From NCBI GenBank assembly GCA_036012755.1, contig DASCPX010000031.1, positions 28,476 through 92,475 of the forward strand: 64,000 nucleotides of DNA, written 5' to 3'. Position numbers and translations under genes: made by a program. Each line of letters opens with the position of its first letter. Position 1 is the stretch's first letter. The stretch comes from Myxococcota bacterium (GTDB lineage: Bacteria > Myxococcota_A > UBA796 > CAJQPC01). The notes beneath the pieces are model-generated. The model did no database searches. It saw only the letters and a program-made list of their open reading frames with translations, and was not told where the DNA came from. Shown here piece after piece: positions 1,141 to 57,226 of the stretch.

Positions 1141-1653
1141 ATGTGGTGGATTCCGCTCGCACTCGCCGACGACCCACCCCGCGGCACGGGTGATGGCCTG
1201 CGCCAGCTCACCATCGAGGCTGGCTTCGACGAGGTCGCCGGCGCGACCGGGGCCCCGGTCTTCGTCGAGCACGCAGAGGTAAACGACAAGGGCGAGAGGG
1301 AACAGCCACCTCCACAGCATGAGACAAGGGCCGCTTCCGAGCAGGGGGGGGAGACACCTCCGGGAGGCTTCCCAGACGCCGGGCCGGCCATCGTCGGGAG
1401 CGGCTCCAGCACCGAGAAGCGAGGCTTCACCTTGCAGGTCGAGGCTCCAGCAGGGGCGACAGTGGTGGCCCACATCGGCGAGTTCGAAGCCGCGCTCTCG
1501 GAGGATTCTCCGGGTGTGCACACCGGCGAGATCGGGCGCTACCCGGTCGGGCCGGCGCTCCGAATCCGGGTCGACGATGTCGAGGTCTTCACCTCTGACA
1601 TAGAGCTCGACGACGACTCGATCCCACCGACGATGCAGGTTCGCTACCAGTAG
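1141..1653 (+). CDS. Hypothetical exported protein
   Basis: 170-aa ORF starting 4 bp after the previous stop. Short hydrophobic N-terminus MWWIPLALA, low-complexity linker, beta-rich acidic C-terminal part. Confidence 0.55.
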   Translation: MWWIPLALADDPPRGTGDGLRQLTIEAGFDEVAGATGAPVFVEHAEVNDKGEREQPPPQHETRAASEQGGETPPGGFPDAGPAIVGSGSSTEKRGFTLQVEAPAGATVVAHIGEFEAALSEDSPGVHTGEIGRYPVGPALRIRVDDVEVFTSDIELDDDSIPPTMQVRYQ

Positions 1654-2924
1654 CCGTCGGCGGACTGGAGCTGGAGCGCCTCGATGCGGGATCGATCGGT
1701 CTCCGGCGGGGCCCCGGGGCCGGTGCGAACCTCTACCATGAGCGCGCGGAGCTCCTCGGCGCGCTCCGGCTGTTCCATGACGAGGTCCTCTTCTTGCAGC
1801 GGGTCACGCTCGACGTCGTGGAGGGTGAAGGCGTCTGACCCGATGGTCGCCTCGAGGAGCCCGTCGGTGAGGCGGAGGTCCAGCGAAGAGGCGTTGTGGA
1901 GGAACCACCGGAGCGCCAGGAAGTCGCTGCCCTCCCGCAGCGACAGCATGTCTCCGAACTCCGCGTAGGCGTACGGCGCCGGGTCGGGGCCCGAGGCGAG
2001 CAGGCTGCGGCCGGTCAGTCCCGCGGGGGCCACACCCCCGACGAGCTCGGCGATGGTCGGGACCAGGTCGATGAGCTCGACGACATCGTCGACCTCGCCG
2101 CGACCGGGAGCGGGCTCGAGGATCGCGAGGGGGACCCGGACCGTGCGGTCGACGATGATGCCGTGGGTGACAGCGCCCAGGTGGTCGCTCTTCACACCCG
2201 TGCGCTCGCCGAGGGAGAGGCCGTTGGTGGAGGTGACGAAGACCCAGCGATCATCCGAGGGGAGGACATCGAGCACGCGAGAGAGCCCCTCTCCGACCGA
2301 GCGGGTGACGCGCCGGTAGTCCTCCGCGACAGCGGCGAGGTCGATGCGCTCCCGCTCGGCCTTGTCGGGCTCGGGCCTGAGCGCCACGGATGGTCGGTAT
2401 TGCAGCATGTGGAGGTCGCTGACCATCACGAGGTAGAGCCTCGGCCCGGAGTGCTCGGACCACCACGCGGCCGCCGTCTCCTCGAGCACTTCCCAGTCGC
2501 TGCTGTAGCCCTTCGTCACGTCCGCGACATAGGCACCGGTCGAATAGCCGTAGGCCTTGGCGACCTCGGCCATGCCGGTGGTCCCGGGAGGGAGGGTCGA
2601 GCACCAGGGCTGCTGTGCCGCTGGGGTCAGGCTGCTGCCGCTGACCATCGCGCAGAGCGGGATCGAGCTCGGATAGCGCCCCGTGAGCATCGAGCCGAAG
2701 GAGGTGTGGGGGGTGCAGCTCTGGGCGTAGGCGGCGCTGAAGCGAGTGCTCGGCTCGTGACCGAGCGCCTCGTAGAAGACCGCCTCGGCTCCCGGCTCGC
2801 TGGTGTCCGCCCTGAGTCCGCTCGCGACGAGGATCACGATGTCCGGCTGCTCAGCGGACCCGGCGACCCTGGCCACGGGAGGGGGCGCCTCGGGGGTCGC
2901 GCAGGCCAGGACGACGAGCAGCAT
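1644..2924 (-). CDS. Sulfatase-like lipoprotein with degenerate active site
   Basis: MLLVVLAC start; PDIVILVASGLRAD, SMLTGRYP, VRVPL, VELIDLVPTI and DPLQEEDL sulfatase-fold motifs. Confidence 0.75.
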   Translation of the reverse strand: MLLVVLACATPEAPPPVARVAGSAEQPDIVILVASGLRADTSEPGAEAVFYEALGHEPSTRFSAAYAQSCTPHTSFGSMLTGRYPSSIPLCAMVSGSSLTPAAQQPWCSTLPPGTTGMAEVAKAYGYSTGAYVADVTKGYSSDWEVLEETAAAWWSEHSGPRLYLVMVSDLHMLQYRPSVALRPEPDKAERERIDLAAVAEDYRRVTRSVGEGLSRVLDVLPSDDRWVFVTSTNGLSLGERTGVKSDHLGAVTHGIIVDRTVRVPLAILEPAPGRGEVDDVVELIDLVPTIAELVGGVAPAGLTGRSLLASGPDPAPYAYAEFGDMLSLREGSDFLALRWFLHNASSLDLRLTDGLLEATIGSDAFTLHDVERDPLQEEDLVMEQPERAEELRALMVEVRTGPGAPPETDRSRIEALQLQSADGYW

Positions 2925-3776
2925 CTACGGTGCCGTCTGTCCCCGGCCGCCATCCCCCCAACAGGAGATGCGCCCGCCGTCGCTGGCACACGCAAAGTGC
3001 GAGCCGCTGCCGACCTCGTCGAAGATGCCAGTCGGGGCGTCGCTCACCGCCCCCTCGCCATCTCCACCCCAGCAAGCGACGGTCCCGCCGGCGAGGAGCC
3101 CGCAGCCGTTGGTCACCGCGACGTCGATCTGGAGGAACTCGCCGGAGGGCGGGCTGGCCTGGGTCGCGTCGTTGCGCCCCCAGCAGTGGACCTGGCCGAG
3201 CGTGTCCAGGGCGCAGGAGAAGAAGCCCCCGACCACGAGGTGCTCCACCTCGCCGATCTCGGGGACGTCCAGCTCGCCGTAGTCGTTGCCGTCTCCCCAG
3301 CACGAGACCTCCCCGTCAACGGACAGGGCGCAGGCGTGCTCCGAGCCGATGCCGACCTCGACGAAGTCACCGCTCGGGACCTCTCCGAGGTCGCGGCCCC
3401 AACACTCGATGCCGCCTTCGAGCGTGACCCCGCAGCTCGCGCTCGTGCCCGCGTCGACATCCATGAAGCTGGTGCCAGGCGCATCGCACTGCCCCGCGGT
3501 GTCGAGCCCCCAGCACGAGGCGCGCTCGTCGCTGGTCAGCCCGCAGCTGTGGAGGACATCGCTCGAGATGGACACGAAGTCCTCTGCAGGGGCCGCGAGC
3601 TGGCCATAGGTGTCGTCGCCCCAGCAGCTGACCTCTCCATCGACGAGCGCGCAGCCGTGGTAGGAGCCCAGTGCGAGCGTACGCGCCGCAAAGGAACCCT
3701 GGGGATCGGAGACCGACGCGGAGTCACCTGTCGCAGGAGGTCCCTTTTCCGTGCAGGCGAGGAGCAACCACGACAT
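2925..3776 (-). CDS. RCC1/BLIP-II repeat lipoprotein
   Basis: Start placed at MSWLLLAC. About 7 repeats of G..H.C.L..DG...CWG....GQ. Confidence 0.85.
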   Translation of the reverse strand: MSWLLLACTEKGPPATGDSASVSDPQGSFAARTLALGSYHGCALVDGEVSCWGDDTYGQLAAPAEDFVSISSDVLHSCGLTSDERASCWGLDTAGQCDAPGTSFMDVDAGTSASCGVTLEGGIECWGRDLGEVPSGDFVEVGIGSEHACALSVDGEVSCWGDGNDYGELDVPEIGEVEHLVVGGFFSCALDTLGQVHCWGRNDATQASPPSGEFLQIDVAVTNGCGLLAGGTVACWGGDGEGAVSDAPTGIFDEVGSGSHFACASDGGRISCWGDGGRGQTAP

Positions 3777-3790
3777 GGCCAGAGGATAGG

Positions 3791-5494: not shown

Positions 5495-5499
5495 GCCCT

Positions 5500-6411: not shown

Positions 6412-6445
6412 CGGCGGACGTTACCCTTGATGGGCCGGAGCCCAA

Positions 6446-6601
6446 CTGAACGACGCCGACTGGCTTCGCAAGCACCTGCGCGGAAAGGTGCAGCGAACCG
6501 CGCACGAGACCGAGTCCGAGGGACTCAAGGGCCGGGTGCGCAAGCTCGTCGCGCGGATCCTCCAGAAGGTATACAGACGCTCCTCGAAGGAGTCCCGATG
6601 A
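6446..6601 (+). CDS. Small basic hypothetical protein (51 aa from CTG 6446, or 37 aa from GTG 6488)
   Basis: Not in the ORF track. Reads LNDADWLRKHLRGKVQ...RKLVARILQKVYRRSSKESR, GC3-rich codons, GGAG 5 nt upstream of the CTG, stop overlaps the next start (ATGA). Confidence 0.5.
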   Translation: MNDADWLRKHLRGKVQRTAHETESEGLKGRVRKLVARILQKVYRRSSKESR

Positions 6602-8594: not shown

Positions 8595-8603
8595 ACCTGG
8601 GAC

Positions 8604-9293
8604 ATGCTCATCCTCCTCGCGCTGGCATGCTCCAACCAGCCCGACCAACCCGACCAACCCGAACGCACCGGGCGCTCCAAGCGGTCCAAGAAGGGCGGCA
8701 AGGGCGGCAAGGGCGGCAAGGGCGGCAAGGGCGGCAAGGGCGGCAAGGGCGAAGGGACTGAGGCCTCGACCGACGGGACCGTCCCGATCGCCGACGCGAC
8801 CCTGGCTGGATCGATGCGGCTGGACCCCGGCACCTCGACGGTGGGCTTCAAGGGCCACAAGCTCACGGGCTCGCACGAGGGCCAGTTCAACGGGATCTCA
8901 GGGACCGCCTTGGTCGACCGGGGCAGGCTCGTGATGCTCTCGGGAGAGATCGAGCTCGCCAGCGTGAAGACCGACAAGATCAAGCTCGACACCCACCTGA
9001 TGGGCGAGGACTTCTTCGACGTGGCGAAGTTCCCGAGGGCGACCTTCGAGACGACCTCGGTCGAGCAAGGGGACGGCGGCTACATCATCACCGGCGACCT
9101 CGATCTGCACGGCGTCATCGAGGAGGTGAGCTTCCCGGCCACGGTCAGCGTAGGGGGACAAGCCGTCGAGATCGACGCCCAGTTCGAGCTCGACCGCCAA
9201 CTCTGGGGCGTGTCCTACCCAGGCAAGCCCGACGACCTCATCCAGGACGACGTGGGCATCACGCTCGAGTTGACCTTCACCGCGGGTGGCTGA
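8604..9293 (+). CDS. YceI family lipid/polyisoprenoid-binding lipoprotein
   Basis: MLILLALAC; STVGFKG, HEGQF, LDTHLMGEDFFDVAKFPRATF, GDLDLHGV. Confidence 0.9.
   Translation: MLILLALACSNQPDQPDQPERTGRSKRSKKGGKGGKGGKGGKGGKGGKGEGTEASTDGTVPIADATLAGSMRLDPGTSTVGFKGHKLTGSHEGQFNGISGTALVDRGRLVMLSGEIELASVKTDKIKLDTHLMGEDFFDVAKFPRATFETTSVEQGDGGYIITGDLDLHGVIEEVSFPATVSVGGQAVEIDAQFELDRQLWGVSYPGKPDDLIQDDVGITLELTFTAGG
8691..8750 (+). repeat. 9-bp tandem repeat AAGGGCGGC, 6 full copies plus a partial (KGG repeats)
   Basis: Read directly; in frame within the YceI gene. Confidence 0.95.
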
Positions 9294-9352
9294 CCAGCTC
9301 TTCGAGAGCCTGGAGCGCCATCGGGGCAGCCACCTGGGCGCCGACTACGTGG

Positions 9353-9586: not shown

Positions 9587-9730
9587 AGACCACCTCTCGG
9601 GTCACCGGACCCGGACCACGACACGAGGTTCCCGGTCGAAGGCGGGATTGACGCCGAGATGACGGTTGGTGGCGAGAATCCCGACCGCATCGAGGACCTC
9701 ATATACTGAGCCGGCTCTCAAGGAGGCCCC

Positions 9731-10765
9731 ATGATCGCGCTGCTGTCGCTCTTCGCCTGCGACCAGGACATCGGCATCCAGCAGAACGCCATCTGCGACG
9801 GAAGCGTCCAGCCCAGCGAAGACTATGTCGACGAGCCCTTCGACCGGGATGGAGACGGCTACTTCGACGCGGACAACCCCGACTGCGCGGCGGTCTACCC
9901 CGCAGAGAGCCTCGACTGCGACGACGGAAACGCAGACGTGAACCCCGGCGCCGACGAGATCGCCTGCAACGGCTGGGACGACGACTGCGACGCGGAGACA
10001 GAGGACGAGGCGGACGTGGACGACGACGGCTTCCCGAACTGCGACGACTGCGACGACCTCAACCCGGACGTCTACCCTGGCAACTCCGAGACCGAGTGCA
10101 ACGGCCTCGACGACGACTGCAACGAGGACACCCTCGACGACCCGGACGTCGACGAGGACGACTACACGGTCTGCGAGGGCGACTGCGACGACATCGACGC
10201 CAACATCAACCCCGGCGCCGAAGAGGTCCCCTGCAACGACGTCGATGACGACTGCAGCTCCGCGACGCCCGACGCCGAGGACAAGGACGGCGACACCTGG
10301 TCGACCTGCGACGGGGACTGCGACGACAACGAGAGCACGGCCTGGCCGGGCTACGAGGAGATCTGCGACGACGAGGTCGACAACGACTGCGACGGGGAGT
10401 GGGACGAAGACTGCGAGCTCGACTACACCGACACCTGGTTCCTCGACACGAGCATCAGCTACGACTGCGCCTACGGGTTCGTGGAGCTGTCCTTCTCCAT
10501 CGTCGACATCACGCACTCGGGCACGAACATCGCCATCTACGGCGGCGGCACCGGTGGCCAGCCGGGCACGACGACCGGCACGCTGGACGACTCCGACCAG
10601 AGCTTCGAGACGGACCGCACGGTGACCGGCGGCTGCGATGAGACCTACCAGTTCATCGGCGAGTTCACGAACGCCGACACCTTCGAGGGGGTGTTCAAGG
10701 CCAAGTTCGTCGGCAGCTGCTACGACTGCAGCAACAAGACCTGGTCCATCGTCGGAACGCGGTGA
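9731..10765 (+). CDS. MopE-related (putative metal-binding motif) repeat lipoprotein
   Basis: AAGGAGG RBS; MIALLSLFAC. Repeated DCDD....NPGA.E..CNG.DDDC units, then a beta-rich C-terminal domain. Confidence 0.85.
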   Translation: MIALLSLFACDQDIGIQQNAICDGSVQPSEDYVDEPFDRDGDGYFDADNPDCAAVYPAESLDCDDGNADVNPGADEIACNGWDDDCDAETEDEADVDDDGFPNCDDCDDLNPDVYPGNSETECNGLDDDCNEDTLDDPDVDEDDYTVCEGDCDDIDANINPGAEEVPCNDVDDDCSSATPDAEDKDGDTWSTCDGDCDDNESTAWPGYEEICDDEVDNDCDGEWDEDCELDYTDTWFLDTSISYDCAYGFVELSFSIVDITHSGTNIAIYGGGTGGQPGTTTGTLDDSDQSFETDRTVTGGCDETYQFIGEFTNADTFEGVFKAKFVGSCYDCSNKTWSIVGTR

Positions 10766-20376: not shown

Positions 20377-21747
20377 CTACTCCACGGCGCCCGCTGCGAC
20401 GCACCAGGCCTCGTACCACGGCGCCAGGGGCGTGTCCGTCGCTGGAAGCTGGGGCACCGCCGAGCTCGCGGCGTCGTCCTCGTCGAAGCCCCAGACCCGA
20501 ACGATGCGGCCCTCGGCCTTCCAGGCCTCCACCTGCTCGGTGTCGCCGCTGCTCACGGCGGCGAAGCTCGCCTGGGCCTCGATGAGCGCGTCGTTGCCCT
20601 GCTGGAGCTCGACGAAGGCGCGGGTCGGGTAGGTGATGCGCTCCCCGTTCACCACCATGTCGCCCTCATCGCTGGTGACGACGAGCTCGCCGGCGCTGGT
20701 CTCGTCGTAGCGAGCATCGCTGGTCGTGTCGTGGTCTCCGAGGCTCACGACCGAGTCCTGGAGCTCGAGCAGCCAGAACCACGTGGACCCGGTGCTCGCG
20801 CTCTGGTGCACCTCGCGGAACTCCGTGCCCCCGAGCCAGCTGAGGCTGGGTAGAACCCCGCTGTCGAACGCGACCGCGTCACTCCAGACGATGTCCTCGC
20901 CGTCGAAGCGCCCGGCGCGGTAGTCGAGCAGGTTGCCCTGGTCCGTGCTGATCAGCAGCACCTCTCCACCGTCGGTGAGCGCCACCGCGGGGTCCCAGCC
21001 CGAGCCCAGGGCCCCGTGCCGCTTCCAGCTCACGCCCTCGCCGTCGAGCTGGCCAGCCCAGTACCAGAGCGAGCCCAAGCCGTCGTCGTGGACCTCGACG
21101 ACCTGGCCCTCGGCGTTCACGGCGATGGCGGGGTTGGCACCCTCGTCCCGCAGCGCGGCGAGCCGCGTGCCCTCGTGCCCGGAGTAGACGACGGCGACCT
21201 CGCCGCGCATGGCGTCGAGGCCGGCGAGCTCCACGAGCAGGTCCTCGCCGAAGGCCTGGAGGAGCTCGTCGCCGAGCCGAGCCAGGTTGCCCTGGTCGTA
21301 GTGTGGGTTGTCGGTGAGGTCGTCCTTGAGGTCGAGGCCCAGCACGATCGGCGCGTGTTCGGGGTGCTCATCGGACCACTGGGAGATCACGGCCAGCCAG
21401 TCGACGAGGGCGTCGGAGGCTGGGTTGCCGTCGTGGTCCACCCCCTGACCGACCCACAGGTGGCCGATGCGGTAGCCCTCGTCCTCGAAGTCGTCGTCGT
21501 GCACGTCGAGCTCGAGGAAGCGCACCCCAGCGTCGAGCTGCTCCACGAGGCTGCCGCGGTCACCGCCCTCGTAGGAGTTGTGGCTCGCGCGCAGGACCAG
21601 CTCCGACAGCTCTCGCTCGTCGATCGGACCGCTGTCGTCCGCGGGCTGGCTGTCCGGCACGCTGTCGCTGCTGTCGGCACGAGCGCTGGTGTCGGGCACG
21701 CCGGAGGGCGGCGAGACCTGGTGGGTGCAGGCCAGGAGCCACGTCAC
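20377..21747 (-). CDS. PI-PLC X-domain-like phospholipase C lipoprotein with inserted repeat region
   Basis: GTGA overlap start MTWLLAC; ASHNSY, EQLDAGVRFLELDVH, HPEHAPIVLGLDLKD. Confidence 0.75.
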   Translation of the reverse strand: MTWLLACTHQVSPPSGVPDTSARADSSDSVPDSQPADDSGPIDERELSELVLRASHNSYEGGDRGSLVEQLDAGVRFLELDVHDDDFEDEGYRIGHLWVGQGVDHDGNPASDALVDWLAVISQWSDEHPEHAPIVLGLDLKDDLTDNPHYDQGNLARLGDELLQAFGEDLLVELAGLDAMRGEVAVVYSGHEGTRLAALRDEGANPAIAVNAEGQVVEVHDDGLGSLWYWAGQLDGEGVSWKRHGALGSGWDPAVALTDGGEVLLISTDQGNLLDYRAGRFDGEDIVWSDAVAFDSGVLPSLSWLGGTEFREVHQSASTGSTWFWLLELQDSVVSLGDHDTTSDARYDETSAGELVVTSDEGDMVVNGERITYPTRAFVELQQGNDALIEAQASFAAVSSGDTEQVEAWKAEGRIVRVWGFDEDDAASSAVPQLPATDTPLAPWYEAWCVAAGAVE

Positions 21748-26170: not shown

Positions 26171-27069
26171 GGCCACGCGAAGGCCCCGCTCAGGAGCATG
26201 CAGAGAAAGAGGACCAGGGTGGATGCGCCCTCGACCTTCTTTGCGGCGGACTCGCGGTGGACCAGCAGCGCGGCCGGAGAGATGGCCACCAGCAGCACGA
26301 CGACGCTGCCGAGGCCATCGATGGCCCAGGGGCCCGACAGCGGCCAGCTCCTGGCGATCCAGCCGCCATCGAGGAAGCGCAGCAGGACAGCGAAGGCGAC
26401 GACGCCCCCGACCATCGACGCCCACAACAGCAACAAGGCGCGGCCGCGGCCGAGGACCGAGGTGTAGGACTCCACGCCCTCGATCTCCTCTGCCGGGAGA
26501 CGGAACTTGCGACCCACCTCGAAGCCCAGGGAGGCCAGGCTGATCATGGCGACGTAGGCGAGGTAGGCCGGATGCCAGCCGGCGTCGGTGCAGGCCCAGC
26601 CCAACAGGGCGAGACCGGCGACCACCGGGTTGTGGGTGATGGCGTAGACCACGATGTGCTTCGAGAGCCACTGGCCGACGAAGAACTCCTTGAGCATCAA
26701 GAGGGTGAAGACCAGGGTCGCCGCCCAGGCGATCAAGGCCCGAGGGCCGATCCAGGCACAGATGGCGAGCTCCACCGCGATGGCGATGGCTCCGAGGACG
26801 CGCAGGTCCCTCAGGGTCACGTCGCCACGGCTCAACACCCGGTCCGGGTAGGCCACGACGTCGCCGTCGAAGTCCTTGTGCTCGTCGAAGACGCGGAGGT
26901 GGAAGAAGACGAGCAGCACGACGACGCCACCAGCCCAGGAGGTGGCCTCTCCTCCACCTACGGCGTGCGACACCAGCGCCGCCGAGCCGAAGAAGAGCGC
27001 CACCAGGATCGAGTACGCCACCGGAGGGAAGCGCTCGTTGAGGTAGGCGGGGACACTTCGAAGGGCCAT
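26167..27069 (-). CDS. UbiA-superfamily prenyltransferase-like membrane protein
   Basis: YLNERFPP, LRVFDEHKD...D....PDR.LSRG (first Asp-rich motif), KEFF, YAITH, EVGRK....EE..GVESYT; about 8 TMs. Confidence 0.8.
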   Translation of the reverse strand: MALRSVPAYLNERFPPVAYSILVALFFGSAALVSHAVGGGEATSWAGGVVVLLVFFHLRVFDEHKDFDGDVVAYPDRVLSRGDVTLRDLRVLGAIAIAVELAICAWIGPRALIAWAATLVFTLLMLKEFFVGQWLSKHIVVYAITHNPVVAGLALLGWACTDAGWHPAYLAYVAMISLASLGFEVGRKFRLPAEEIEGVESYTSVLGRGRALLLLWASMVGGVVAFAVLLRFLDGGWIARSWPLSGPWAIDGLGSVVVLLVAISPAALLVHRESAAKKVEGASTLVLFLCMLLSGAFAWP

Positions 27070-28028
27070 CAGCGGAGCGGGACCAGGACAGACGGGGTGC
27101 CAGAGACGAGGACCGCGGGACCCTTGGGGGTGCGGACGGCGACGGCGACGGCGGACTCGGGGATGTCGCGGAGGACGTGGTCCTTCCACCCGAGCGAGTC
27201 GCGGACCAGGAGGTGGACACCAGAGGTGCCGGTCACGAGGATCCAGCCTTCCTCGAGGACCTCGATCTCCCTCGCCGAGTAGTCGTCGGAGAAATGGGCG
27301 ATGGCCCGGGACTCCTCCCACCTCGGCCCCTCGAAGAGCGTGACGCGACCGTCAGCCCGCTCACCGTAGGCGTAGTGCCAGCCGTCCCCTGCGAGCAGCT
27401 CGAGGTCGCCGTCGTCGTCGAGGTCGGCCACGGCGAGGCTGCGCGCGCCTCGGTGAGAGGGGAGAACACGGGCCCCCACGCGGACATCGCCGTCACTCTT
27501 CGGCTCCGGGCCATAGACATGGGCGAGCACGACCTCCTCGCCCACCGGCACGCTCCGGGTGGCGAGCAGCCCGCTGGCCTTGACGTCGAGGGCCCCCGAG
27601 ACGACCCAGCCGGACTCGACGACGCGGCTGTTCGCGTAGGTCGCCACCCAGACCTGGCCGTCGATGACCCGAAGCTCCGGGATCTGGGTCCGATCTCCCG
27701 GGAAGGACGCGAGGCGCTCGACGCTGTCGGCCGAGACGACCTCCAAGTGGGCGGGCCCCCGGTACTCCCGGCTCATGCCGGTCGCCAGCACCAGCTCCTC
27801 GCGACCGTCGCCGTCCAGATCCCCGGCTGCGGCCCGCTGGAAGGACCCCTCCAGCTCCAGCCTGCCGCCGGCCCAGCGCATCACTCCGTCGTGTATGTAG
27901 AAGAGTTCGTCGAAGCCGTCGCCGTCGAGGTCCGCGGCAGCGACGCCGTCTCCGGCGGGATCGAGCTCGAGTGCCGGTCCGATGGTCGGGAGCACGGGGC
28001 TCGAGGCGCAAGCGAGCAACAACGGCAT
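27069..28028 (-). CDS. FG-GAP/VCBS repeat lipoprotein
   Basis: MPLLLAC; ADLDGDGFDEL, GDLDGDGREEL, ADLDDDGDLEL. TGATG overlap with the UbiA-like gene. Confidence 0.8.
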   Translation of the reverse strand: MPLLLACASSPVLPTIGPALELDPAGDGVAAADLDGDGFDELFYIHDGVMRWAGGRLELEGSFQRAAAGDLDGDGREELVLATGMSREYRGPAHLEVVSADSVERLASFPGDRTQIPELRVIDGQVWVATYANSRVVESGWVVSGALDVKASGLLATRSVPVGEEVVLAHVYGPEPKSDGDVRVGARVLPSHRGARSLAVADLDDDGDLELLAGDGWHYAYGERADGRVTLFEGPRWEESRAIAHFSDDYSAREIEVLEEGWILVTGTSGVHLLVRDSLGWKDHVLRDIPESAVAVAVRTPKGPAVLVSGTPSVLVPLR

Positions 28029-31658: not shown

Positions 31659-31662
31659 GGGA

Positions 31663-33090: not shown

Positions 33091-33097
33091 AGGAGGC

Positions 33098-34285: not shown

Positions 34286-34307
34286 CCGTGTCAACCCTGG
34301 AGGCAAC

Positions 34308-35662
<1,355 letters not shown>

Positions 35663-35666
<4 letters not shown>

Positions 35667-36619: not shown

Positions 36620-37539
36620 TGGGCTCCGTCGCTGTCGCTGCTGGAGCGCTGGTCTTCTTGACCGTCGTCGCGGCGCTCGCGGGGGTGTTCTTCATCGTCA
36701 ACCCGTGGCGAACCGCCCAGGACCGGTTGACGGACATGACGGGCAGCGCTCCCGCCCAGGACGCACGGCGCAGCGAGCGCATGGGCGCCGTCGGCCAGAC
36801 CATCGCCCGCCTCGCCGCCCCGAAAGAGGACAGCGATGACTTCAACGCCCTCCGCAAGCGCTTGATCCAGTCCGGCTACCGTGGCCGCAACAACGTCGAG
36901 CTGTACTCGGCCATACGCTTCGCCCTCGCCGTCGCCTTCCCGCTGCTCTTTGCGATCCTGCCGCTTCAGACCGGCACGCTGGGGTCCGTGGCCGGAGCGC
37001 TGGTGACCTGCGCCGTGGGCTACTGGCTGCCGGCACTGTGGGTCACGAACACGCTCCAGAAGCGCCAGGATGCGATCCTCCGGACCTTCCCGGACGCGCT
37101 TGACATGCTCACCGCGTCGGTGGAAGCGGGTCTGGGTCTGGACGCCGCGTTTCGGCGGGTGGCCAACGAGATGGGCGAAGCCGCACCCCTGTTGTGCGAC
37201 GAGCTCAAGCTGGTCAACAACGAGGTCAGCGCCGGCATCTCCCGCACCGAGGCGCTCAGGCACCTCGAGGTCCGCACCGGACTCGACGAGGTCGCCTCGC
37301 TCGTGAACGTGCTGATCCAGGCGGAGCGCTTCGGTACGCCGGTGGCGCGCAGCCTCCGAGTCCACTCCGAGCTCGTCCGAACCAAGCGCATGCAGAAGGC
37401 CGAGGAGGCCGCGGCGAAGATCTCGCCGAAGCTCACGGTCGCTATGATCCTCTTCATGCTCCCCTGCCTCATCATCGTGGTCCTCGGACCGGCGATCGTG
37501 AAGGTCATTCGCAACCTCCTGCCGGCGCTGGGGGGATGA
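36619..37539 (+). CDS. tadC: Tad platform protein TadC
   Basis: TGATG overlap; FPDALDML..SVEAGLGLDAA, QAERFGT, AEE.AAK...KL, GPA. Confidence 0.93.
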   Translation: MGSVAVAAGALVFLTVVAALAGVFFIVNPWRTAQDRLTDMTGSAPAQDARRSERMGAVGQTIARLAAPKEDSDDFNALRKRLIQSGYRGRNNVELYSAIRFALAVAFPLLFAILPLQTGTLGSVAGALVTCAVGYWLPALWVTNTLQKRQDAILRTFPDALDMLTASVEAGLGLDAAFRRVANEMGEAAPLLCDELKLVNNEVSAGISRTEALRHLEVRTGLDEVASLVNVLIQAERFGTPVARSLRVHSELVRTKRMQKAEEAAAKISPKLTVAMILFMLPCLIIVVLGPAIVKVIRNLLPALGG

Positions 37540-38303
37540 CCGTGTTGCTGTTGTTGTCCTGTGTCACGACCCGCGGTGTGCCCGAGGAGAGCTGGTCGCT
37601 GGCCGACACCACAGCGGTCCACCTCGACCTCATTCGGGCATTCCTGGAGGCCGGTAGCTGCGACGAGGCCCTCCACGGCATCGCCGCGGCTCGGGACCAG
37701 GGTCTCTCTGGGGCGCCCGTCGATCTGCTCCAAGCCGAAGCGCTGCTCTGCAAGGGCCTGCCACGTGACGCGCTCACGCTGCTGGACGGCAAGTACCGGA
37801 TGTCCTCTGAGAGGCACGGTCTCGTCTGCATCGCTCACGCCGACCTCGCCCAGGTGGGCGAAGCCGCGGATGCCTGCGAGGCGGCGATCCGGCGCCTGCC
37901 GCGCAACGCCACCATCAGTGAGCAGGCGACCGCCTGGCAGAACCTCGGCTTCGTGCTCGCGGCGGACAGCGACCACGAAGGGGCCGTCGACGCCTACCAG
38001 CAGGCCCTGCAGCTGGACCCCTCCTACGGACGGGCCAGGAACAACCTCGCGTTCTCACTCGCCGCTCTCGGTCGGGACGAAGAGGCGCTGGCGACCTTCC
38101 GCGTCGCGCTGGACTACCAGTACGGCTTCGACAAGGAGATCCTGGAGGCCAACGCGCACTACAACCTGGGCCTGGCTCAGGCTTCGCGTGGTGACCAGGA
38201 CCACGCCCGACAGAGCTACCGCGAAGCCCTCTCGATCATCCCCGAGCACGCCCGGGCCCAGGCGGCGCTGGACGACCTGAGCCCGAACAAGGAGGCCAAC
38301 TGA
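37536..38303 (+). CDS. TPR lipoprotein (TadD-like pilotin candidate)
   Basis: ATGA overlap; MTVLLLLSC; TPRs (AWQNLG, ARNNLA, AHYNLG); located after tadC. Confidence 0.8.
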   Translation: MTVLLLLSCVTTRGVPEESWSLADTTAVHLDLIRAFLEAGSCDEALHGIAAARDQGLSGAPVDLLQAEALLCKGLPRDALTLLDGKYRMSSERHGLVCIAHADLAQVGEAADACEAAIRRLPRNATISEQATAWQNLGFVLAADSDHEGAVDAYQQALQLDPSYGRARNNLAFSLAALGRDEEALATFRVALDYQYGFDKEILEANAHYNLGLAQASRGDQDHARQSYREALSIIPEHARAQAALDDLSPNKEAN

Positions 38304-38536
38304 TGCTGCTTCTCACCCTGTCGCTCGGCTGCGGCTCCCCCCAACACCTCCAGTACGACCATGGCCGCTCGTTCCGCGAGGCCACCCAGGCCCAGACCGA
38401 TCTCTCACGAGAGAGCGTGCAGGAGGAGCTCTACCCGCTCGACGGGACTGAAGGTCTCGCCATCCGCTTCAGGGCCGTCGAGGCCGCGGGTGACAAGGAG
38501 TCGGGTGAGTCCACGCTGACCATGACAGAGGACTGA
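38303..38536 (+). CDS. Small Tad-associated lipoprotein (77 aa)
   Basis: AAGGAGG RBS, TGATG overlap; MLLLTLSLGC..HLQYDHGRSF. Confidence 0.7.
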   Translation: MLLLTLSLGCGSPQHLQYDHGRSFREATQAQTDLSRESVQEELYPLDGTEGLAIRFRAVEAAGDKESGESTLTMTED

Positions 38537-43109: not shown

Positions 43110-43799
43110 ATGCGATTCACCGTCGCCCTGACCAGCCTCTCCCTCCTCTTTGCCTGTGGCGACAAGAAGCCGCCCGAGGCCGCGGCCGAGGTCGCCGAGG
43201 CCCCCGCGGCCGAACCCGTGCCGGAGCCGGAGCCGGAACCCGAGCCAGAACCGGTCGTGGAAGCGCCGCCTGCCGACAACGCCGACATCAAGCTCACTGT
43301 CACCTTCGGCGACGGGACCACGAACTCCGGACACATCCGCCGGATCGAGCGCTCGAGCGACTGGTTCGCCGAGACCGGCTGGGAGGACAGCGAGAACAAG
43401 ATCACGCTCGAGCTGGAGGGCAACGGCACGCTGAAGGACGTGTCCTGGTCCGAGATCAAGACCATCACCGTGTCCCCCGGGACCGTGAGCTCGGACACCG
43501 ACTGCACCTACAGCTCCGACTACACACCCTGGATGTACACCTGCGAGCTGCGCACGCCGACCACCGCGGTGACGACCGATGGCAAGAAGTGGACCGTGAA
43601 CAGCCGCCACAAGTGGCGCTTCACCTACGACGACGGCACCGAGATCGAGTTCTGGCTGACCAAGCACCCCGCCCGACTGCAGGACACCAACACGGTGGGC
43701 CTCGACACGGTCAACCCGGAGAACTACGAGATCTACAAGGCGCTCCAAGCCCAGCTCAGGACCGAGCGTCAGAGCTCGATCCGCTCGATCAAGCAGTAG
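43110..43799 (+). CDS. Hypothetical lipoprotein with Pro/Glu linker
   Basis: GAAGGAG RBS; MRFTVALTSLSLLFAC; (PE)n linker; globular domain with two Cys. Confidence 0.8.
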   Translation: MRFTVALTSLSLLFACGDKKPPEAAAEVAEAPAAEPVPEPEPEPEPEPVVEAPPADNADIKLTVTFGDGTTNSGHIRRIERSSDWFAETGWEDSENKITLELEGNGTLKDVSWSEIKTITVSPGTVSSDTDCTYSSDYTPWMYTCELRTPTTAVTTDGKKWTVNSRHKWRFTYDDGTEIEFWLTKHPARLQDTNTVGLDTVNPENYEIYKALQAQLRTERQSSIRSIKQ

Positions 43800-45695: not shown

Positions 45696-46505
45696 ATGTT
45701 CACCGCCGCCTGCATCCAGATCCGAGCCTCCTCGGACCTGCAACGCAACCTCCGGGTCACCGAGGAGCTCGTCCGCCGAGCCGCTGGCATGGGCTGCAGC
45801 CTCGTCGCCACGCCGGAGGCGACGACCTACCTCGGCCCCCACGACAAGAAGGTGGAGCTGGCGGAGCAGGTCGACGGGCCCACACACAGGCGCCTGGCCC
45901 GACTGGCCGAAGAGCTCGGCATCCACTTGCTGATCGGCTCGGTGGCCGAGCGCGCCGAGGGGGACCAGCGGCGCTGCCACAACACCTCGCTGCTCTTCGG
46001 TCCGGCCGGTGAGCTCATCGCCAGCTACCGGAAGATGCACCTCTTCGACGTCGACATCCCAGGCGGCGTGAGCTTCGCCGAGTCGCGCACCTGCGCGCGG
46101 GGCAGTGAGCTGGTCGTCGCCTCGACCAGCCTCGGCGAGATCGGTCTGTCGATCTGCTACGACCTCCGCTTCCCCGAGCTCTACCGAGCCCTGCTGGACC
46201 GCGGCGCACAGATCCTGACCGTGCCCAGCGCCTTCACGCTGATGACTGGAAAGGACCACTGGCACGTCCTGCTCCGAGCGCGGGCGATCGAGACCCAGTG
46301 CTACGTGTTGGCGCCCGGCCAGTGGGGAGCCCATGACGACGAGGGCCTTCGTCGCAGCTACGGTCACTCGGTGATCATCGACCCCTGGGGCACCGTCGTG
46401 GCCGAGTGCAGCGACGGCGAGGGCCTCTGCGTCGCCGAGATCGATCTCGACCGCGTCGCGAGCGTTAGGCGCTCCATGCCCCTGTCCCAGCACCGGCAGC
46501 TCTGA
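45696..46505 (+). CDS. Carbon-nitrogen hydrolase (Nit1/deaminated glutathione amidase-like)
   Basis: E-K-C triad: TPE, YRKMHLFD, ICYDLRFPE; HWHVLLRARAIETQ, YGHS.IIDPWG. Confidence 0.93.
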   Translation: MFTAACIQIRASSDLQRNLRVTEELVRRAAGMGCSLVATPEATTYLGPHDKKVELAEQVDGPTHRRLARLAEELGIHLLIGSVAERAEGDQRRCHNTSLLFGPAGELIASYRKMHLFDVDIPGGVSFAESRTCARGSELVVASTSLGEIGLSICYDLRFPELYRALLDRGAQILTVPSAFTLMTGKDHWHVLLRARAIETQCYVLAPGQWGAHDDEGLRRSYGHSVIIDPWGTVVAECSDGEGLCVAEIDLDRVASVRRSMPLSQHRQL

Positions 46506-47527
46506 TGTTCTGGCTCCTTGCATGCGGCTTCCAGCCGATCCGACACGAAGACCGCGCCAGCGCCTGGCTCGAGTTCCACGACGACCTCGACCAGGCCGTC
46601 GCGGATGCCTCGGAGTGGGGCCTGGATCTGAACCTGGCCATGGAGCGGGACACCCACGGCATGGACCGCTTCAGGACGGTCTGCGCCCTGGCAGAGCAGC
46701 ACGACGTCGGCCTGAAGGTCTGGCCGCTGTTGCCGACGGAGGAGGGCTACTGGCCGAACCAAGGCAACACCGCGGAGTTCGCCGAGTGGACCTGGGAGCT
46801 GGTCGATGTCGCCCGAGACGACTGCGACAACCTCGACGGTGTCGTCGTCGACATGGAGATGCCCTACGACCGCGCGATGGCGCTCCAGGAGATGATCGAC
46901 GAAGGCGCCAGCGACATCGAGGTCGCCAGCTTCCTGGTCGAGACCATCGACGAGGAGGGCTTCGAGCAAGCTCGTCAGGACTACGAGGAGCTCACCCTCG
47001 CCCTGCAAGAGGAGGGTCTCCGCGTCCACCTCACGACCCTGCCGATGATCGCCGACGACCTCGCCGACGGAGACGAGACCCTGGCGCTCGCATTCTGGAC
47101 ACCCGTCCAGGACATCAGCTGGGACATCGCGAGCGTGCAGGTGTACCGGAGCTTCTTCCAGTCGACCCTGGCCTCGTCCCTGGAGGACCCGACGCAGGAG
47201 TTCACCTCTGGACTCGTCACGAGCTACGCGGAGACGATGGTCGAGCACTTCGGGGACGCAGCCGCCCTGGACCTCGGCACCACCGGAGCGGTGGGGATCG
47301 GGGTCGAGGCGGGTCTGAGCGAGGAAGAGCTGCAGTCGGATCTCGCGGCGGCGCTGGCCTTCGTCTCCCCAGACCACATCGCGATCTACAGCCTCGAAGG
47401 CCTCGACGAGCACGACGACCCGGCGGCGAGCCTGAGACTACCGGCTCCGCACGCTCCCGAGCCCGACGCCGCCACACTGGAGATCCGCGACGTCTACGCG
47501 ACGCTGGACGCCTTGCGAGACGACTGA
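46505..47527 (+). CDS. Hypothetical acidic lipoprotein, possible TIM-barrel/glycoside-hydrolase-like fold
   Basis: TGATG overlap; MFWLLAC; WPLL..EEGYWPN and DGVVVDME. Confidence 0.7.
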   Translation: MFWLLACGFQPIRHEDRASAWLEFHDDLDQAVADASEWGLDLNLAMERDTHGMDRFRTVCALAEQHDVGLKVWPLLPTEEGYWPNQGNTAEFAEWTWELVDVARDDCDNLDGVVVDMEMPYDRAMALQEMIDEGASDIEVASFLVETIDEEGFEQARQDYEELTLALQEEGLRVHLTTLPMIADDLADGDETLALAFWTPVQDISWDIASVQVYRSFFQSTLASSLEDPTQEFTSGLVTSYAETMVEHFGDAAALDLGTTGAVGIGVEAGLSEEELQSDLAAALAFVSPDHIAIYSLEGLDEHDDPAASLRLPAPHAPEPDAATLEIRDVYATLDALRDD

Positions 47528-47539: not shown

Positions 47540-48285
47540 ATGTCTCCTGCTTGGACTCTCGCTGTGAACGGCCTCTTGCTGACCCTGGCCTGCAGCGAAC
47601 CTGGGGTGGCCACGGACCTGGCCGTCCTGTAGCAGCCATCTCCGGGGAGACGGGCCTGTGCCACCTCGTCCGAGCTCCCGCGATCCGGTTCGACTGTGCG
47701 CTGGCCGAGGTCCACGCTCAGGGATCCGAGGCACGACCCGATGACTGCGACGGACTGGTCGGGTTCTACGCCGAGGAGTGCTTCTTCCTGGTCGCCGAGG
47801 TCAGCGGGGTGCCAGCGTCGTGCTCCCACGCGGGGCAGTTCGAGACCCGGTGCCGACTCCACCTGCTCCGTGATGGTGCCCCACTCCCGCCCCTCGAAGA
47901 CCCCGGCTACCTCGCCAGCGTCGCGGCGCGAATCGCCGAGGTCGGCCTCGACCCACAGGCGAACCAGCCGTGGGAGTGGACGCTGGGCAGCGCCCTCCGG
48001 GCCGAGGAACCACTACGACGATCACGCTGCGACGCGCTGGCGGACGAGGCGAGGCGGCAGACCTGCTTCGGAGCCGCCGAGGCGATGTTCCAGCGCCAGC
48101 TGGAGGCGCTCGCAGACCGCCAGATGTTGCCTTGCACAGGGCCGCTGCCCGAAGCCGCCCGCCCCGCGCCGGACCCGGCCTTCGACACGATCCTGGAGAA
48201 CCTGCGCGCGACCGGTCGCTGCGCGGACGACCCGCGACCCATGGTCCGCCCTGATCGGCGCGGGCCAGGGCTCGAGGAGCCGTAG
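47540..48285 (+). pseudogene. Cys-rich lipoprotein, frameshifted at about 47629; paralog of 48317-49000
   Basis: (MSPAWTLA)VNGLLLTLAC...DLAVL-stop in one frame; body AAISGETGLC...ECFFLVAE...PCTGPLP...GRC in the -1 frame. One added base joins them. Confidence 0.7.
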
Positions 48286-49794: not shown

Positions 49795-50540
49795 CAGATG
49801 GCCAGGAAGAGCTTGGTCAGCATGAAGTTGCTGACGAGCACCGTGATGCTGATCGCGACCACCGTGTTCGTGGTGGAGCGACCGACTCCCTCCGTCCCGC
49901 CTCGGGTGTTGAGCCCGACGTAGCAGCCGATGATGGCGATGAAGTACCCGAAGAAGACGCTCTTGGCGAGACCGTGGAAGAGGTCCGGGACCTCGATGGT
50001 GTCGATGACCTGCTCGAGGAAGAAGCGCGGGGTGACGCCTACCTCCTGCATCGTGATGAGCATGCCGCCGAAGCAACCCACGAAGTCCGCCAGCACGGTC
50101 AACATAGGCAGCATGATGACGCAAGCCAGCACGCGGGGGACGACCAGCTTCTGGACCGGGTCCGCTCCCAGGGCAGAGATGGCGTCGACCTGCTCCGTCA
50201 CGTTCATCGAGCCGATCTCGGCCGTGAAGCCCGCCCCGACCCGGCCGCCGACGAGCACCGCCGTCAGGGTGGGGCCCAGCTCGCGGAACATCGCGAGGCT
50301 GACGAGCTTGCCCGTGTAGAGCGAAGCGCCGTAGGGCTCGAGCCCGACGGCGAACTGGATGGCCATGACAGCGCCGGTGAAGAGCGCGGTCAACACGGCG
50401 ATGGACCAGCTCCCGATGCCTGCGTGGTCCATCTGCTCGACCAGGAGCGCAGCCTCCACGCGCACCATCTGGCGGAGCGTCCGAAGCGTCAGGTTGGCCA
50501 CGCCGCCGACATGGCCGAGGAGCTGGAAGAGTTGGCTCAT
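49794..50540 (-). CDS. mlaE: MlaE-type ABC permease
   Basis: RELGP.LTA..GGRVGA..TAEIGSM.VTEQVDA, LVVPR, GGTEGVGRSTT.TVV. Confidence 0.95.
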   Translation of the reverse strand: MSQLFQLLGHVGGVANLTLRTLRQMVRVEAALLVEQMDHAGIGSWSIAVLTALFTGAVMAIQFAVGLEPYGASLYTGKLVSLAMFRELGPTLTAVLVGGRVGAGFTAEIGSMNVTEQVDAISALGADPVQKLVVPRVLACVIMLPMLTVLADFVGCFGGMLITMQEVGVTPRFFLEQVIDTIEVPDLFHGLAKSVFFGYFIAIIGCYVGLNTRGGTEGVGRSTTNTVVAISITVLVSNFMLTKLFLAI

Positions 50541-51010
50541 CGGGTCGCGAAGCCCGCCAACACCGCCTGGTAGCCCTCCCAGGCCGACTGGAAGCGCTCT
50601 CCACGTGGAGCGATGACGACGATGTCGTAGGTGCAGCGGTCCTTCTTGAGCACGGTCGTGCCGAGCTCCACCGGGACGCCGTCCAGCTCTCCGAGGGCGC
50701 GGGACGTGTAGGCCGTGCGCCCGTCGAGTTCGTAGGTCTCCTCGAACGAGGGCTCCCCGGTGGAGACGCCGAAGGTCATGTGCGTGGCGAGATCCTCCAG
50801 CGGGGCGTCCTCGAAGCGGGCCCCGCAGTTGCTGTCCGCATAGATGACCGCGGCATCGGACCTGTTGCGGAAGGCGAAGTCAGCGCCGCCCGCGGCGACC
50901 TTCTTCCAGCCTTCTCCCGGGTTGCCCACGACGTACTGGCCCTCGAGGAGTCTGGCCTGCCGCACGGCCTTGGGCGTGCAGCCGGCGATGGTGAACGCGA
51001 GCAGGAGCAT
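50537..51010 (-). CDS. Hypothetical lipoprotein coupled to mlaE
   Basis: MLLLAFTIAGC; LDGVPV....VLKKDRC.YD. Overlaps both neighbours; no MCE motif seen. Confidence 0.8.
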   Translation of the reverse strand: MLLLAFTIAGCTPKAVRQARLLEGQYVVGNPGEGWKKVAAGGADFAFRNRSDAAVIYADSNCGARFEDAPLEDLATHMTFGVSTGEPSFEETYELDGRTAYTSRALGELDGVPVELGTTVLKKDRCTYDIVVIAPRGERFQSAWEGYQAVLAGFATR

Positions 51011-51765: not shown

Positions 51766-51774
51766 GATTGAACC

Positions 51775-55898: not shown

Positions 55899-55944
55899 AA
55901 CAAGTCTCCGACGCTTTCCGTAGCGCGATAGCAGGGAAGGCCCG

Positions 55945-56730
55945 ATGGCTGACGACATCCTGGACTACGACGAGGAGAAGCCGGTCCCGGCCAGGCGCTG
56001 GCTGTGGGATCTCCTCAAAACCTGGGTCCCAGCCATCCTCGCCGTCTTCGCGATCCGCTCGGCGGTGGCGGAGCCCTTCCGCATCCCGTCGGGCTCGATG
56101 GTCCCCACGCTGGAGATCGGCGACCACATCCTGGTCAGCAAGTTCAGCTACGACGTAAAGGTCCCCTTCACGGGCGAGGACCTGCCCGGCAGCTTGCGCT
56201 TCCCCAAGATCACGCTGATGCCCATCGCGGAGCCGCAGCGAGGCGACATCATCGTCTTCGAGTGGCCCCCGAACCCGGCCCAGGACTACATCAAGCGCGT
56301 CGTCGCGCTGCCCGGGGACATCGTCGAGGTCAAGGACAACGTCGTCTACGTCAACGACGAGGAGCAGCCCAAGGAGTACGTCGAGCAGCTGATCTTCAAG
56401 GACGACGGCTGCCGCGAGGAGAAGGTCAAGGCCTACAAGGAGGACCTCTACGGTGTGGAGCACTGGGTGCTCAACTCCACGGCCTACGGACGCAGCAGCC
56501 TGGCCAACTTCAGCGCCACGACCATCCCGGAAGGGCACGTCTTCGTGATGGGCGACAACCGCGACAACAGCGCGGACTCACGGGTCTGGGGCACGGTCCC
56601 CTACGGCAACATCCTGGGCAAGGCCCACTTCGTCTGGCTGTCCTACGACGCCTGCATGGTCGGCGAGCCCGGCGGCATGCCGCTGTTCGGCGAGTTCCGC
56701 TGGGACCGCTTCGGGCAGGGGCTGGAGTAG
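55945..56730 (+). CDS. lepB: Signal peptidase I
   Basis: EPFRIPSGSMVPTL, GD, RGDIIVF, DYIKRVV..PGD, MGDNRDNS.DSR.WG.VP. Confidence 0.96.
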   Translation: MADDILDYDEEKPVPARRWLWDLLKTWVPAILAVFAIRSAVAEPFRIPSGSMVPTLEIGDHILVSKFSYDVKVPFTGEDLPGSLRFPKITLMPIAEPQRGDIIVFEWPPNPAQDYIKRVVALPGDIVEVKDNVVYVNDEEQPKEYVEQLIFKDDGCREEKVKAYKEDLYGVEHWVLNSTAYGRSSLANFSATTIPEGHVFVMGDNRDNSADSRVWGTVPYGNILGKAHFVWLSYDACMVGEPGGMPLFGEFRWDRFGQGLE

Positions 56731-56731
56731 T

Positions 56732-57226
56732 TCAGCCAGAGTCGACCGGCCCGGAGTCACCCGGGTCGCAGTCCTCGTCCACGCTGTCGTCGCAGTCGTT
56801 GTCGACGAGGTCGTCACAGATCTCCTCGGCCCCAGGAGAGACACCGGCGTCCGCGTCGTCGCAGTCCCCCAGCTCCGTCGTGTAGCCGCTGAGGTCGCAG
56901 ACCATCGCGCTGTCGGAGAGCTCGCTGGCGTAGCCGTCGCCGTCGCCGTCGGGCCAGGCCTCCATCGGCAGCGAGGCGTCGCTGTCGTTGCAGTCATCCG
57001 CGTTGTCCGAGTAGCCGGGCCAGTCAGTGCCGCAGGCGTCGTTGGGCGCGGCCGGGTTCCCCAGACCGTCTCCGTCCGCGTCCGCGTAGACCGTGTCGAG
57101 GACGTCCTCGTCGATGTCACCGTCGCAGTCGTTGTCGAGGCCGTCGCAGACCTCGTCCGAGGGGGTGCAGGACTCGTCGATGGGGTCGTCGTCGCCGCAG
57201 GCGAGAGCGCAGAGAAGCCAGATCAT
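56732..57226 (-). CDS. MopE-related repeat lipoprotein
   Basis: MIWLLCALAC; EVCDGLDNDCDG, YADADGDGLG, DCDD....SPGAEEICD..DNDC. Confidence 0.85.
   Translation of the reverse strand: MIWLLCALACGDDDPIDESCTPSDEVCDGLDNDCDGDIDEDVLDTVYADADGDGLGNPAAPNDACGTDWPGYSDNADDCNDSDASLPMEAWPDGDGDGYASELSDSAMVCDLSGYTTELGDCDDADAGVSPGAEEICDDLVDNDCDDSVDEDCDPGDSGPVDSG

Follow-up and report, generated by a model that had tools for sequence, protein, structure and literature searches.

Bacterial lipoprotein signals of the Escherichia coli Lpp type, which pass through the general secretory (Sec) channel and are cut by signal peptidase (SPase) II, are the closest described counterparts of the leaders considered here. 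In the available part of PMC8689077, the canonical lipoprotein signal is described as 16–26 residues long, positively charged toward its N-terminus and ending in the lipobox [LV][ASTVI][GAS]C. We analyzed a 64,000-nucleotide stretch of an uncultured Myxococcota genome (the window; positions 28,476 to 92,475 of contig DASCPX010000031.1, assembly GCA_036012755.1) in which unrelated exported-type proteins begin with far shorter leaders. As in the Lpp-type signals, a hydrophobic stretch leads to a small residue and an invariant Cys, a disordered tether follows, and Lgt, LspA and Lnt are encoded; unlike those signals, the modal Cys position is 8, 431 of 465 short leaders are uncharged, and Leu occupies position −2 in 321/504. 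Judged from sequence, the leaders are probably true lipoprotein signal peptides of the Sec type in a strongly shortened form, and we infer their export, lipidation and cleavage, as well as the role of SecY discussed below.

Short signals have been made to work in the laboratory. In the 1990s, the Mizushima and Kendall laboratories reportedly found that short, very hydrophobic Leu cores drive export in E. coli, with hydrophobicity offsetting the loss of N-terminal charge. Such engineered poly-leucine signals were single reporter constructs in E. coli, whereas the leaders described here are the default in several hundred native genes. A literature search, mostly outside subscription journals, returned no description of natural very short lipoprotein signals or of Myxococcota signals of this kind. 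New in this analysis are the leaderless-promoter support for the starts, a check against independent assemblies, a count with unrestricted leader residues, the alignment of homolog cysteines, a negative result on Lgt and LspA copy number, and the clade mapping of a substitution at the I187 position of SecY.

Short uncharged leaders across the genome

The window belongs to a metagenome-derived bin of 6.73 Mb in 250 contigs (68.4% G+C, completeness rated 96%), and the sequencing runs containing its DNA are marine, seawater or hydrothermal-vent metagenomes, with no RNA run among those listed for window positions 1–10000. Close relatives identified by searching with a window protein are all uncultured metagenome-assembled genomes (MAGs), labeled mostly as Myxococcota or Deltaproteobacteria and in some cases plainly wrongly. 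Genes were called with a simple codon-usage gene finder built for this work, yielding 5786 genes that cover 91% of the genome.

A genome-wide count, which the original prediction had proposed, bore out the scale of the trait. The search pattern (Met, 2–12 uncharged residues including at least three of L, I, V, F, W or M, then [AGS]C) was found at 1201/15394 N-terminal candidate starts, representing 951 genes, as compared to 256/89736 internal start-like codons, a 27-fold difference. Starts were termed forced short if the most upstream ATG, GTG or TTG still placed the [AGS]-Cys at residues 6–13. There were 504 such genes, with the Cys most often at position 8 (163 genes) and also at 7 (79), 9 (107) and 10 (79), and a count without any gene model gave 482 forced-short starts in 6.43 Mb. 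The remaining lipobox candidates were short with a useless upstream start (272), ambiguous (150) or canonical only (176). A lipobox-type N-terminus of some kind was present in ∼1100/5786 called genes, or about one in five, where ∼40 would be expected by chance.

Because the pattern itself forbids charge, the count was repeated with unrestricted leader residues. Cys positions were then bimodal, at 8 and ∼17–21. Among the 465 leaders with a Cys at or before residue 13, 431 had no Lys, Arg, Asp or Glu and 26 had Lys or Arg; 136/171 longer leaders contained Lys or Arg. The predicted lack of charge is thus not imposed by the search, and the short leaders have no positively charged N-terminal region. 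Nor do they have the ∼16–26-residue length and hydrophobic helix of ordinary signals, with a median core of 5 residues versus 12 in the canonical leaders of the phylum. Leu makes up 0.54 of the core residues, as compared to 0.27 in canonical leaders. The twin-arginine (Tat) motif is also missing, as the short leaders are without Arg; long leaders that do have RRxF-type motifs, such as MASMKRRDFFKMVGVTGAAGLTAC, also occur in the genome but are few. The residue ending the hydrophobic run was Cys in 508/981 hydrophobic N-termini, and many of the others end in Ala-x-Ala-like sites at residues 9–13, for example MILLSLALA before TD and MIALLLALAFA before QE (...ALA and ...AFA endings), in agreement with the Cys-less SPase I counterpart that had been suggested.

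The short starts are genuine on the evidence of their sequence context, with at least one of four independent supports present for 427/504. The distance from the upstream in-frame stop to the Cys was at most 15 codons in 191/504 and at most 13 codons in 148/504, and in the latter genes the leader is short whatever codon initiates. A TANNNT motif lay at −13 to −11 in 110/504 short-signal starts, as compared to 8/5636 internal start-like codons, and a Shine–Dalgarno (SD)-like motif was found in 225/504, as compared to 869/5636. In 97/504 the start abutted or overlapped the stop of the upstream gene. In Mycobacterium tuberculosis, the TANNNT −10 motif is placed 7–12 bp upstream of the transcription start site (TSS), and 26% of genes are described as leaderless in the part of PMC3898074 available. 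Here, TANNNT peaked at −12 in 84/516 short starts, with 20 at the out-of-frame −13 position, and the peak recurred in other genes (166 at −12 and 47 at −13 of 2370; 4 and 3 of 5625 internal codons). Since the hexamer sits at −12, in-frame stops exactly 3 codons upstream are in excess, at 107/517 short starts and 411/2811 genes overall, far above expectation. Such spacing puts the transcription start on the start codon, so that no upstream coding sequence would be transcribed.

Transcription of the short-signal genes with TANNNT probably begins at the start codon, and the occurrence of the peak across gene classes suggests that a sizeable share of the organism's mRNAs is leaderless. These genes resemble the leaderless mRNAs of Mycobacterium and Deinococcus in having TANNNT at −12/−13 from ATG or GTG and no room for a 5′ untranslated region; they differ in that leaderlessness is predicted here from motif position. 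No report of leaderless transcription in this uncultured Myxococcota lineage was found in the literature search.

Starts in the window were also compared with the assemblies of other runs. In X5, X6 and X9, the last from another study, contigs cover starts 1141 and 2924 with 0 differences and 0 gaps, in line with the absence of uncorrected indels at these starts; the same is true of X5 contigs over 3776, 8604 and 9731, and of X6 over 9731. No indels between run assemblies were listed for window positions 1–10000. Contig depth jumped at window 8685–9018 in all four compared runs (up to 332 in X6), with contig breaks at 8699–8750; as this lies inside a Gly/Lys-rich repeat of a YceI-like gene, it is probably a low-complexity repeat common to other organisms.

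Alignment of homologs, a second check that had been proposed, matched the short-leader Cys to the lipobox Cys of homologs with ordinary signals. For the named tad-locus set, an [AGS]C aligned in 35/36 pairs, 24 of which had leaders of 14–35 residues, such as MKLTLAVVAVAALCAC and MRTRLIFGGLLVGAAALTGC. A Cys aligned in 28/39 pairs from the organism's own family, 15 of these also forced short, and an [AGS]C aligned in 12/31 pairs from other families of the order, none forced short. Homologs in relatives carry ordinary 16–20-residue signals with Lys or Arg ahead of the aligned Cys. In the TadD-like series, MTVLLLLSC in this genome corresponds to MKFLVLLTALLATAC and MRLGTLLLLSALTTAC in relatives; many TadD-like homologs have MK/MR...C leaders of 13–17 residues at the matching place, and others have Cys-less signals. 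BamD was dropped as an orthologous lipoprotein series, as its signal is mostly Cys-less across the order and frames were picked for only 16 of 21 fragments; its leader is short and uncharged in this genome (MFALLLTLSLPAVAA) as well as in two further family genomes, and elsewhere mostly contains Arg or Lys.

The first 30 residues of the predicted mature proteins are enriched in Pro (1.94-fold), Asp (1.65-fold), Thr (1.35-fold) and Ser (1.33-fold), as is expected of lipoprotein tethers (PMC8689077, in part). These mature ends thus appear to be disordered tethers of the lipoprotein kind, followed by exported-type domains: Pfam matches of the short-leader proteins include Sulfatase, RCC1, YceI, FG-GAP, MopE, PI-PLC and TPR.

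The SecY pore ring and distribution among relatives

In the available parts of two studies, changes to the SecY pore ring are tied to relaxed export. I187 is a member of the isoleucine ring, prlA mutations lie at other ring positions (I191, I278 and I408), and these ring suppressors are considered to make it easier for altered signals to open the channel (Cannon et al., PMC2171872). A 2026 screen reported numerous super-active substitutions in the pore ring, I278A and I408A among them, and described the ring as proof-reading substrates (PMC13537251).

We aligned SecY sequences to E. coli SecY in the numbering of 5abb_A. The I187 equivalent is Ala in this genome, and every one of the 30 SecY of the order has either Ala (20) or Ser (10) there. 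Outside the order it is Ile (18) or Met (2) in 20/20 SecY, four of them from genomes in the same class and 16 from genomes in other phylum families. The order's 30 SecY all keep Ile at the remaining five ring positions (I82, I86, I191, I278 and I408). A pore-ring substitution of the prlA type is therefore present, at the I187 equivalent. Like prlA and super-active E. coli SecY, the protein has a smaller residue at one position of the six-isoleucine ring, and changes of that class pass proteins with defective signals or raise translocation activity (PMC2171872, PMC13537251). It differs from a laboratory suppressor in being a natural, fixed, order-wide allele, and the available text of PMC2171872 names prlA alleles at I191, I278 and I408, with I187 given only as a ring member.

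The frequency of forced-short starts falls off with taxonomic distance. The samples from relatives are small and related genomes are not independent; the own-family rate was taken from 5 genomes, and the residue comparison between clades covers SecY among the export components. Forced-short starts per 100 kb were:

This genome: 7.5 (482 in 6.43 Mb).
Own family: 4.67 (23 in 493 kb, seen in 5/5 genomes).
Other families of the order: 0.8 (6 in 751 kb).
Same class: 0.47 (1 in 215 kb).
Rest of the phylum: 0.25 (3 in 1.2 Mb; all 3 from one low-G+C genome, scored without a frame filter).

In tad-locus surroundings of named MAGs, the values were 2.8 for close relatives (four matches, all a single orthologue), 0.96 for order-level relatives and 0.64 for other phyla. 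By these counts the trait is strong within the organism's own family and weak among the order's remaining families, and it falls to background in other parts of the phylum.

As the SecY change is wider than the strong trait, it would be at most permissive. Within that limit, the comparison points to the prlA-like change at the I187 position as the best candidate for a permissive factor.

Proposed route and alternative explanations

In the proposed reading, the signal would consist of the initiator Met, a Leu-rich core of ∼5 residues, a small residue and the lipid-acceptor Cys, with no basic n-region. The proteins would enter the single SecYEG channel, after which Lgt would add diacylglycerol, LspA would cut before the Cys, Lnt would add the third acyl chain and Lol would sort the product. 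Dense hydrophobicity may partly offset the short length, and the free or formylated N-terminus would be buried within the bilayer as a non-spanning, half-bilayer anchor. One family of uncultured Myxococcota, marine and freshwater, would have arrived at such leaders by losing the n-region together with most of the h-region. A relaxed SecY in the whole order possibly permitted the shortening, with the signals of one family shrinking to near the minimum. This full history, in which a prlA-like SecY relaxed proof-reading across the order and one family then shrank most of its Sec signals to Met plus 5–8 Leu-rich residues, is offered tentatively, as a scenario that we think less likely than not.

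Several observations weigh against the proposed reading. A 7-residue leader is too short to span a membrane, and hydrophobicity summed over the core reaches about half the value of canonical leaders (16.6 vs 29.2). The strict lipobox [LV][ASTVI][GAS]C is found in only 89/504 leaders, with Leu at −2 in 321/504; a relaxed form allowing Leu at −2 and Ile at −3 is found in 297/504, the −1 residue being fixed by the search pattern, and the strict form in 23/74 of a noisy canonical sample from the phylum. None of the four supports was found for 77/504 forced-short starts. The gene calls come from a crude, purpose-built finder, and ∼1100 lipoprotein candidates among 5786 genes is an unusually high share. 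For SecY, no residue separated the organism's own family from the rest of the order at thresholds of 85%/75% (8 positions differed at relaxed thresholds), and the change is order-wide, yet other families of the order have 0.8 forced-short starts per 100 kb as compared to 4.7–7.5 in the own family. Moreover, it counts as one evolutionary event only, which leaves the correlation with little statistical weight.

These last points bear most directly on the alternative that the short signals work but the Ile-to-Ala/Ser change in SecY is a neutral clade marker, with tolerance arising instead from lipids, SecA, the signal recognition particle (SRP) or the Leu-rich cores themselves. We regard this as a serious possibility, if somewhat short of even. 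It accounts for a one-time substitution that is present in families with almost no short signals, and SecY is the one component in the clade comparison. It must be set against the laboratory changes at other ring positions that relax proof-reading or raise translocation (PMC2171872, PMC13537251, as available in part), the retention of a large residue in all 20 SecY sampled outside the order, and the weak trait of the order, which at 0.8 per 100 kb slightly exceeds the background of the class (0.47) and of the phylum (0.25).

The motif could also be real and serve something other than a cleaved Sec/SPase II signal, such as an uncleaved anchor, N-tail insertion of the YidC type or modification of the Cys by another enzyme. 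The original prediction of an altered export and lipidation pathway found partial support, in the one SecY pore-ring residue; the components are all present and Lgt and LspA copy numbers are unrelated to the trait. The genome encodes one SecY, one SecA, Ffh, FtsY, one YidC, two LolA and three S26 peptidases, and five Lgt, two LspA and one Lnt above curated cut-offs, so the enzymes of the lipoprotein pathway are encoded. A tandem lspA-lspA-lgt-lgt cluster lies at C59:99943-102645, with three further lgt genes on contigs C203, C40 and C127. LspA ranges from 0 to 4 copies across the phylum sample, and Lgt from 3 to 6, whether in the own family or elsewhere in the order. The Lgt and LspA paralogues were rejected as the cause of the trait, their copy numbers being the same in relatives without it.

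A route outside SPase II would fit a ∼5-residue core, below the usual minimum for SecY gating or bilayer spanning, as well as the infrequent strict lipobox (89/504) and the presence of five Lgt and two LspA paralogues. We nevertheless think it unlikely. The same Cys aligns in homologs with ordinary lipoprotein signals, the −1 residue and Cys obey lipobox rules and are followed by a Pro/Asp/Thr/Ser-rich tether, a parallel Cys-less class has Ala-x-Ala-like ends, and paralogue numbers are equal in relatives without the trait; there was also no lineage-specific enzyme to name, although no search aimed at one was made.

Errors in start assignment, whereby translation from upstream codons other than ATG, GTG and TTG or readthrough of a recoded stop restores ordinary signals, are very improbable. 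Room for a longer leader does exist, with more than 15 open codons between the upstream stop and the Cys in 313/504 genes, a short start nested within a possible canonical leader in 150 further genes, and nearby upstream starts at 28028 and 57226 in the window. Such errors are countered by the stop-to-Cys distances of at most 13 codons (148/504), which hold independently of the start codon, by the leaderless-spaced −10 boxes (110), SD-like motifs (225) and starts that abut or overlap an upstream stop (97), and by the recurrence of short starts in 5/5 sampled family genomes. The upstream in-frame stops are of all three kinds (TGA 310, TAG 161, TAA 46), and an aragorn search of the genome found no suppressor-type tRNA except one tRNA-Sec (anticodon tca), on which basis stop-codon recoding was rejected.

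Truncation of gene 5′ ends by indels or chimeric contigs can be set aside almost entirely: the genome is a 250-contig metagenome bin and the window gene at 47540–48285 looks frameshifted, but contigs from other runs match starts 1141, 2924, 3776, 8604 and 9731 (a run from another study covering 1141 and 2924), the housekeeping genes for SecY, SecA, Ffh, YidC and Lnt are intact, and the trait recurs in separately assembled relatives.

Short-leader genes of the window

All 12 N-termini listed in the original prediction were found at their coordinates; nine are robust, and three are ambiguous or broken (28028, 47564 and 57226). Starts 21747 and 47564 are GTG rather than ATG, with the N-terminal sequences themselves confirmed. 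The genes concerned are as follows, together with a Cys-less leader, an ordinary comparator and the SPase I gene.

1141..1653, plus strand: Cys-less short leader gene, MWWIPLALA before DD, SPase I-type; in-frame TGA 9 codons upstream, no upstream start.
1644..2924, minus strand: Sulfatase-family gene, MLLVVLAC, Cys 8; Pfam Sulfatase; TAG directly before the ATG.
2925..3776, minus strand: RCC1-repeat gene, MSWLLLAC, Cys 8; Pfam RCC1_2; TATCCT at −12, a leaderless-type −10 spacing.
8604..9293, plus strand: YceI-like gene, MLILLALAC, Cys 9; Pfam YceI; TAGACC at −12.
9731..10765, plus strand: MopE-motif gene, MIALLSLFAC, Cys 10; Pfam Cu-binding_MopE; AGGAG at −10; TGA 7 codons upstream.
20377..21747, minus strand: PI-PLC-like gene, GTG start, MTWLLAC, Cys 7; Pfam PI-PLC-C1; GGAG at −12.
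27069..28028, minus strand: FG-GAP gene, MPLLLAC, Cys 7; Pfam FG-GAP; alternative MRAMPLLLAC from 28037.
37536..38303, plus strand: TPR (TadD-like) gene of the tad pilus locus, MTVLLLLSC, Cys 9; ATGA overlaps the stop of a tadC-like gene.
38303..38536, plus strand: 77-residue gene, MLLLTLSLGC, Cys 10; AGGAG at −13; TGA overlaps the ATG.
43110..43799, plus strand: comparator with an ordinary leader, MRFTVALTSLSLLFAC, Cys 16; AGGAG at −10.
46505..47527, plus strand: 340-residue gene, MFWLLAC, Cys 7; TGA of a CN-hydrolase gene overlaps the ATG.
47540..47632, plus strand: broken lipoprotein-type start; GTG 47564 gives MNGLLLTLAC, ATG 47540 gives MSPAWTLAVNGLLLTLAC.
50537..51010, minus strand: 157-residue gene, MLLLAFTIAGC, Cys 11; GGAGG at −12; TGA overlaps the ATG; no upstream start in 69 codons.
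55945..56730, plus strand: Signal peptidase I (LepB) gene; Pfam Peptidase_S26, 184 bits, the highest-scoring of the genome's three S26 matches.
56732..57226, minus strand: MopE-motif gene, MIWLLCALAC, Cys 6 and 10; TAGGAT at −13.

That three of these starts cannot be extended was confirmed: an in-frame TAG immediately precedes the ATG at 2924 (0 intervening codons), lies 3 intervening codons above 8604 with no start between, and lies 12 intervening codons above 46505 with no ATG, GTG or TTG between. More broadly, no upstream ATG, GTG or TTG is in frame at 2924, 8604, 9731, 38303, 46505 or 51010 (0, 3, 7, 36, 12 and 69 intervening codons, respectively). At 3776, 21747 and 37536, upstream starts occur only at least 108 codons away and within the preceding genes, the closest being 108 codons above 3776 and 116 above 21747. 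As had been stated, 21747, 37536, 38303, 46505 and 51010 overlap the preceding stop codon, as GTGA (21747), as ATGA or with TGA overlapping the ATG.

Start 28028 is ambiguous because of an ATG 3 codons upstream, itself directly after an in-frame TAG, and 57226 because a GTG 6 codons upstream would yield MGRIAAMIWLLCALAC. At 47564 the frame ends after 22 codons, and a protein-like body without a Pfam match continues from ∼47650 to 48285 in another frame, so the gene at 47540–48285 is apparently frameshifted or a pseudogene; its ATG at 47540, 8 codons above 47564, would yield an 18-residue uncharged leader in a frame of ∼30 codons. The leader at 43110 is indeed ordinary, falling in the minor canonical mode with Cys at 16–22; the window also contains an unlisted short leader with Arg, MRLASLALLCC at 49000 on the minus strand. 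The 340-residue protein from 46505 could not be used as an ortholog series because a homolog (53% identical) was found in only 1/40 relatives.

The TadD-like and 77-residue genes lie in a complete tad/Flp pilus locus (window 29948–38536, plus strand), which encodes Flp pilin, an A24 prepilin peptidase, RcpC/CpaB, a secretin, a ParA-like ATPase, a CpaF-type ATPase, two T2SSF proteins, and the TPR and 77-residue lipoproteins. The lipoprotein-type gene at 50537–51010 is flanked by genes for an ABC ATPase and a MlaE permease (window 49794–51681, minus strand), which suggests a lipid-transport accessory role for the 157-residue short-signal protein. The LepB gene, the genome's main signal peptidase I gene, adjoins the short-signal MopE-motif gene on the opposite strand.

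Signal predictors, like the textbook rules, expect a charged n-region and place the Cys no earlier than about residue 15. Should the short leaders prove functional, most envelope proteins of this lineage would escape such rules; for this one genome the number would be ∼800–900 candidate lipoproteins together with several hundred short leaders of the Cys-less kind, and gene callers may mis-set the starts of short-leader genes. Functional leaders of this length would set a natural lower bound on the signals recognized by SecYEG, Lgt, LspA and signal peptidase I. If the full history outlined above, with its relaxed SecY, is true, a basic n-region and a membrane-spanning h-region would be dispensable in vivo for Sec export, for Lgt/LspA processing and for SPase I cleavage. 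For secretion engineering, leaders of seven residues and a permissive SecY allele may also be of interest. Short signals combined with the SecY substitution represent a testable natural case of the trade-off between channel proof-reading and signal strength, which has hitherto been approached through laboratory prlA mutants.

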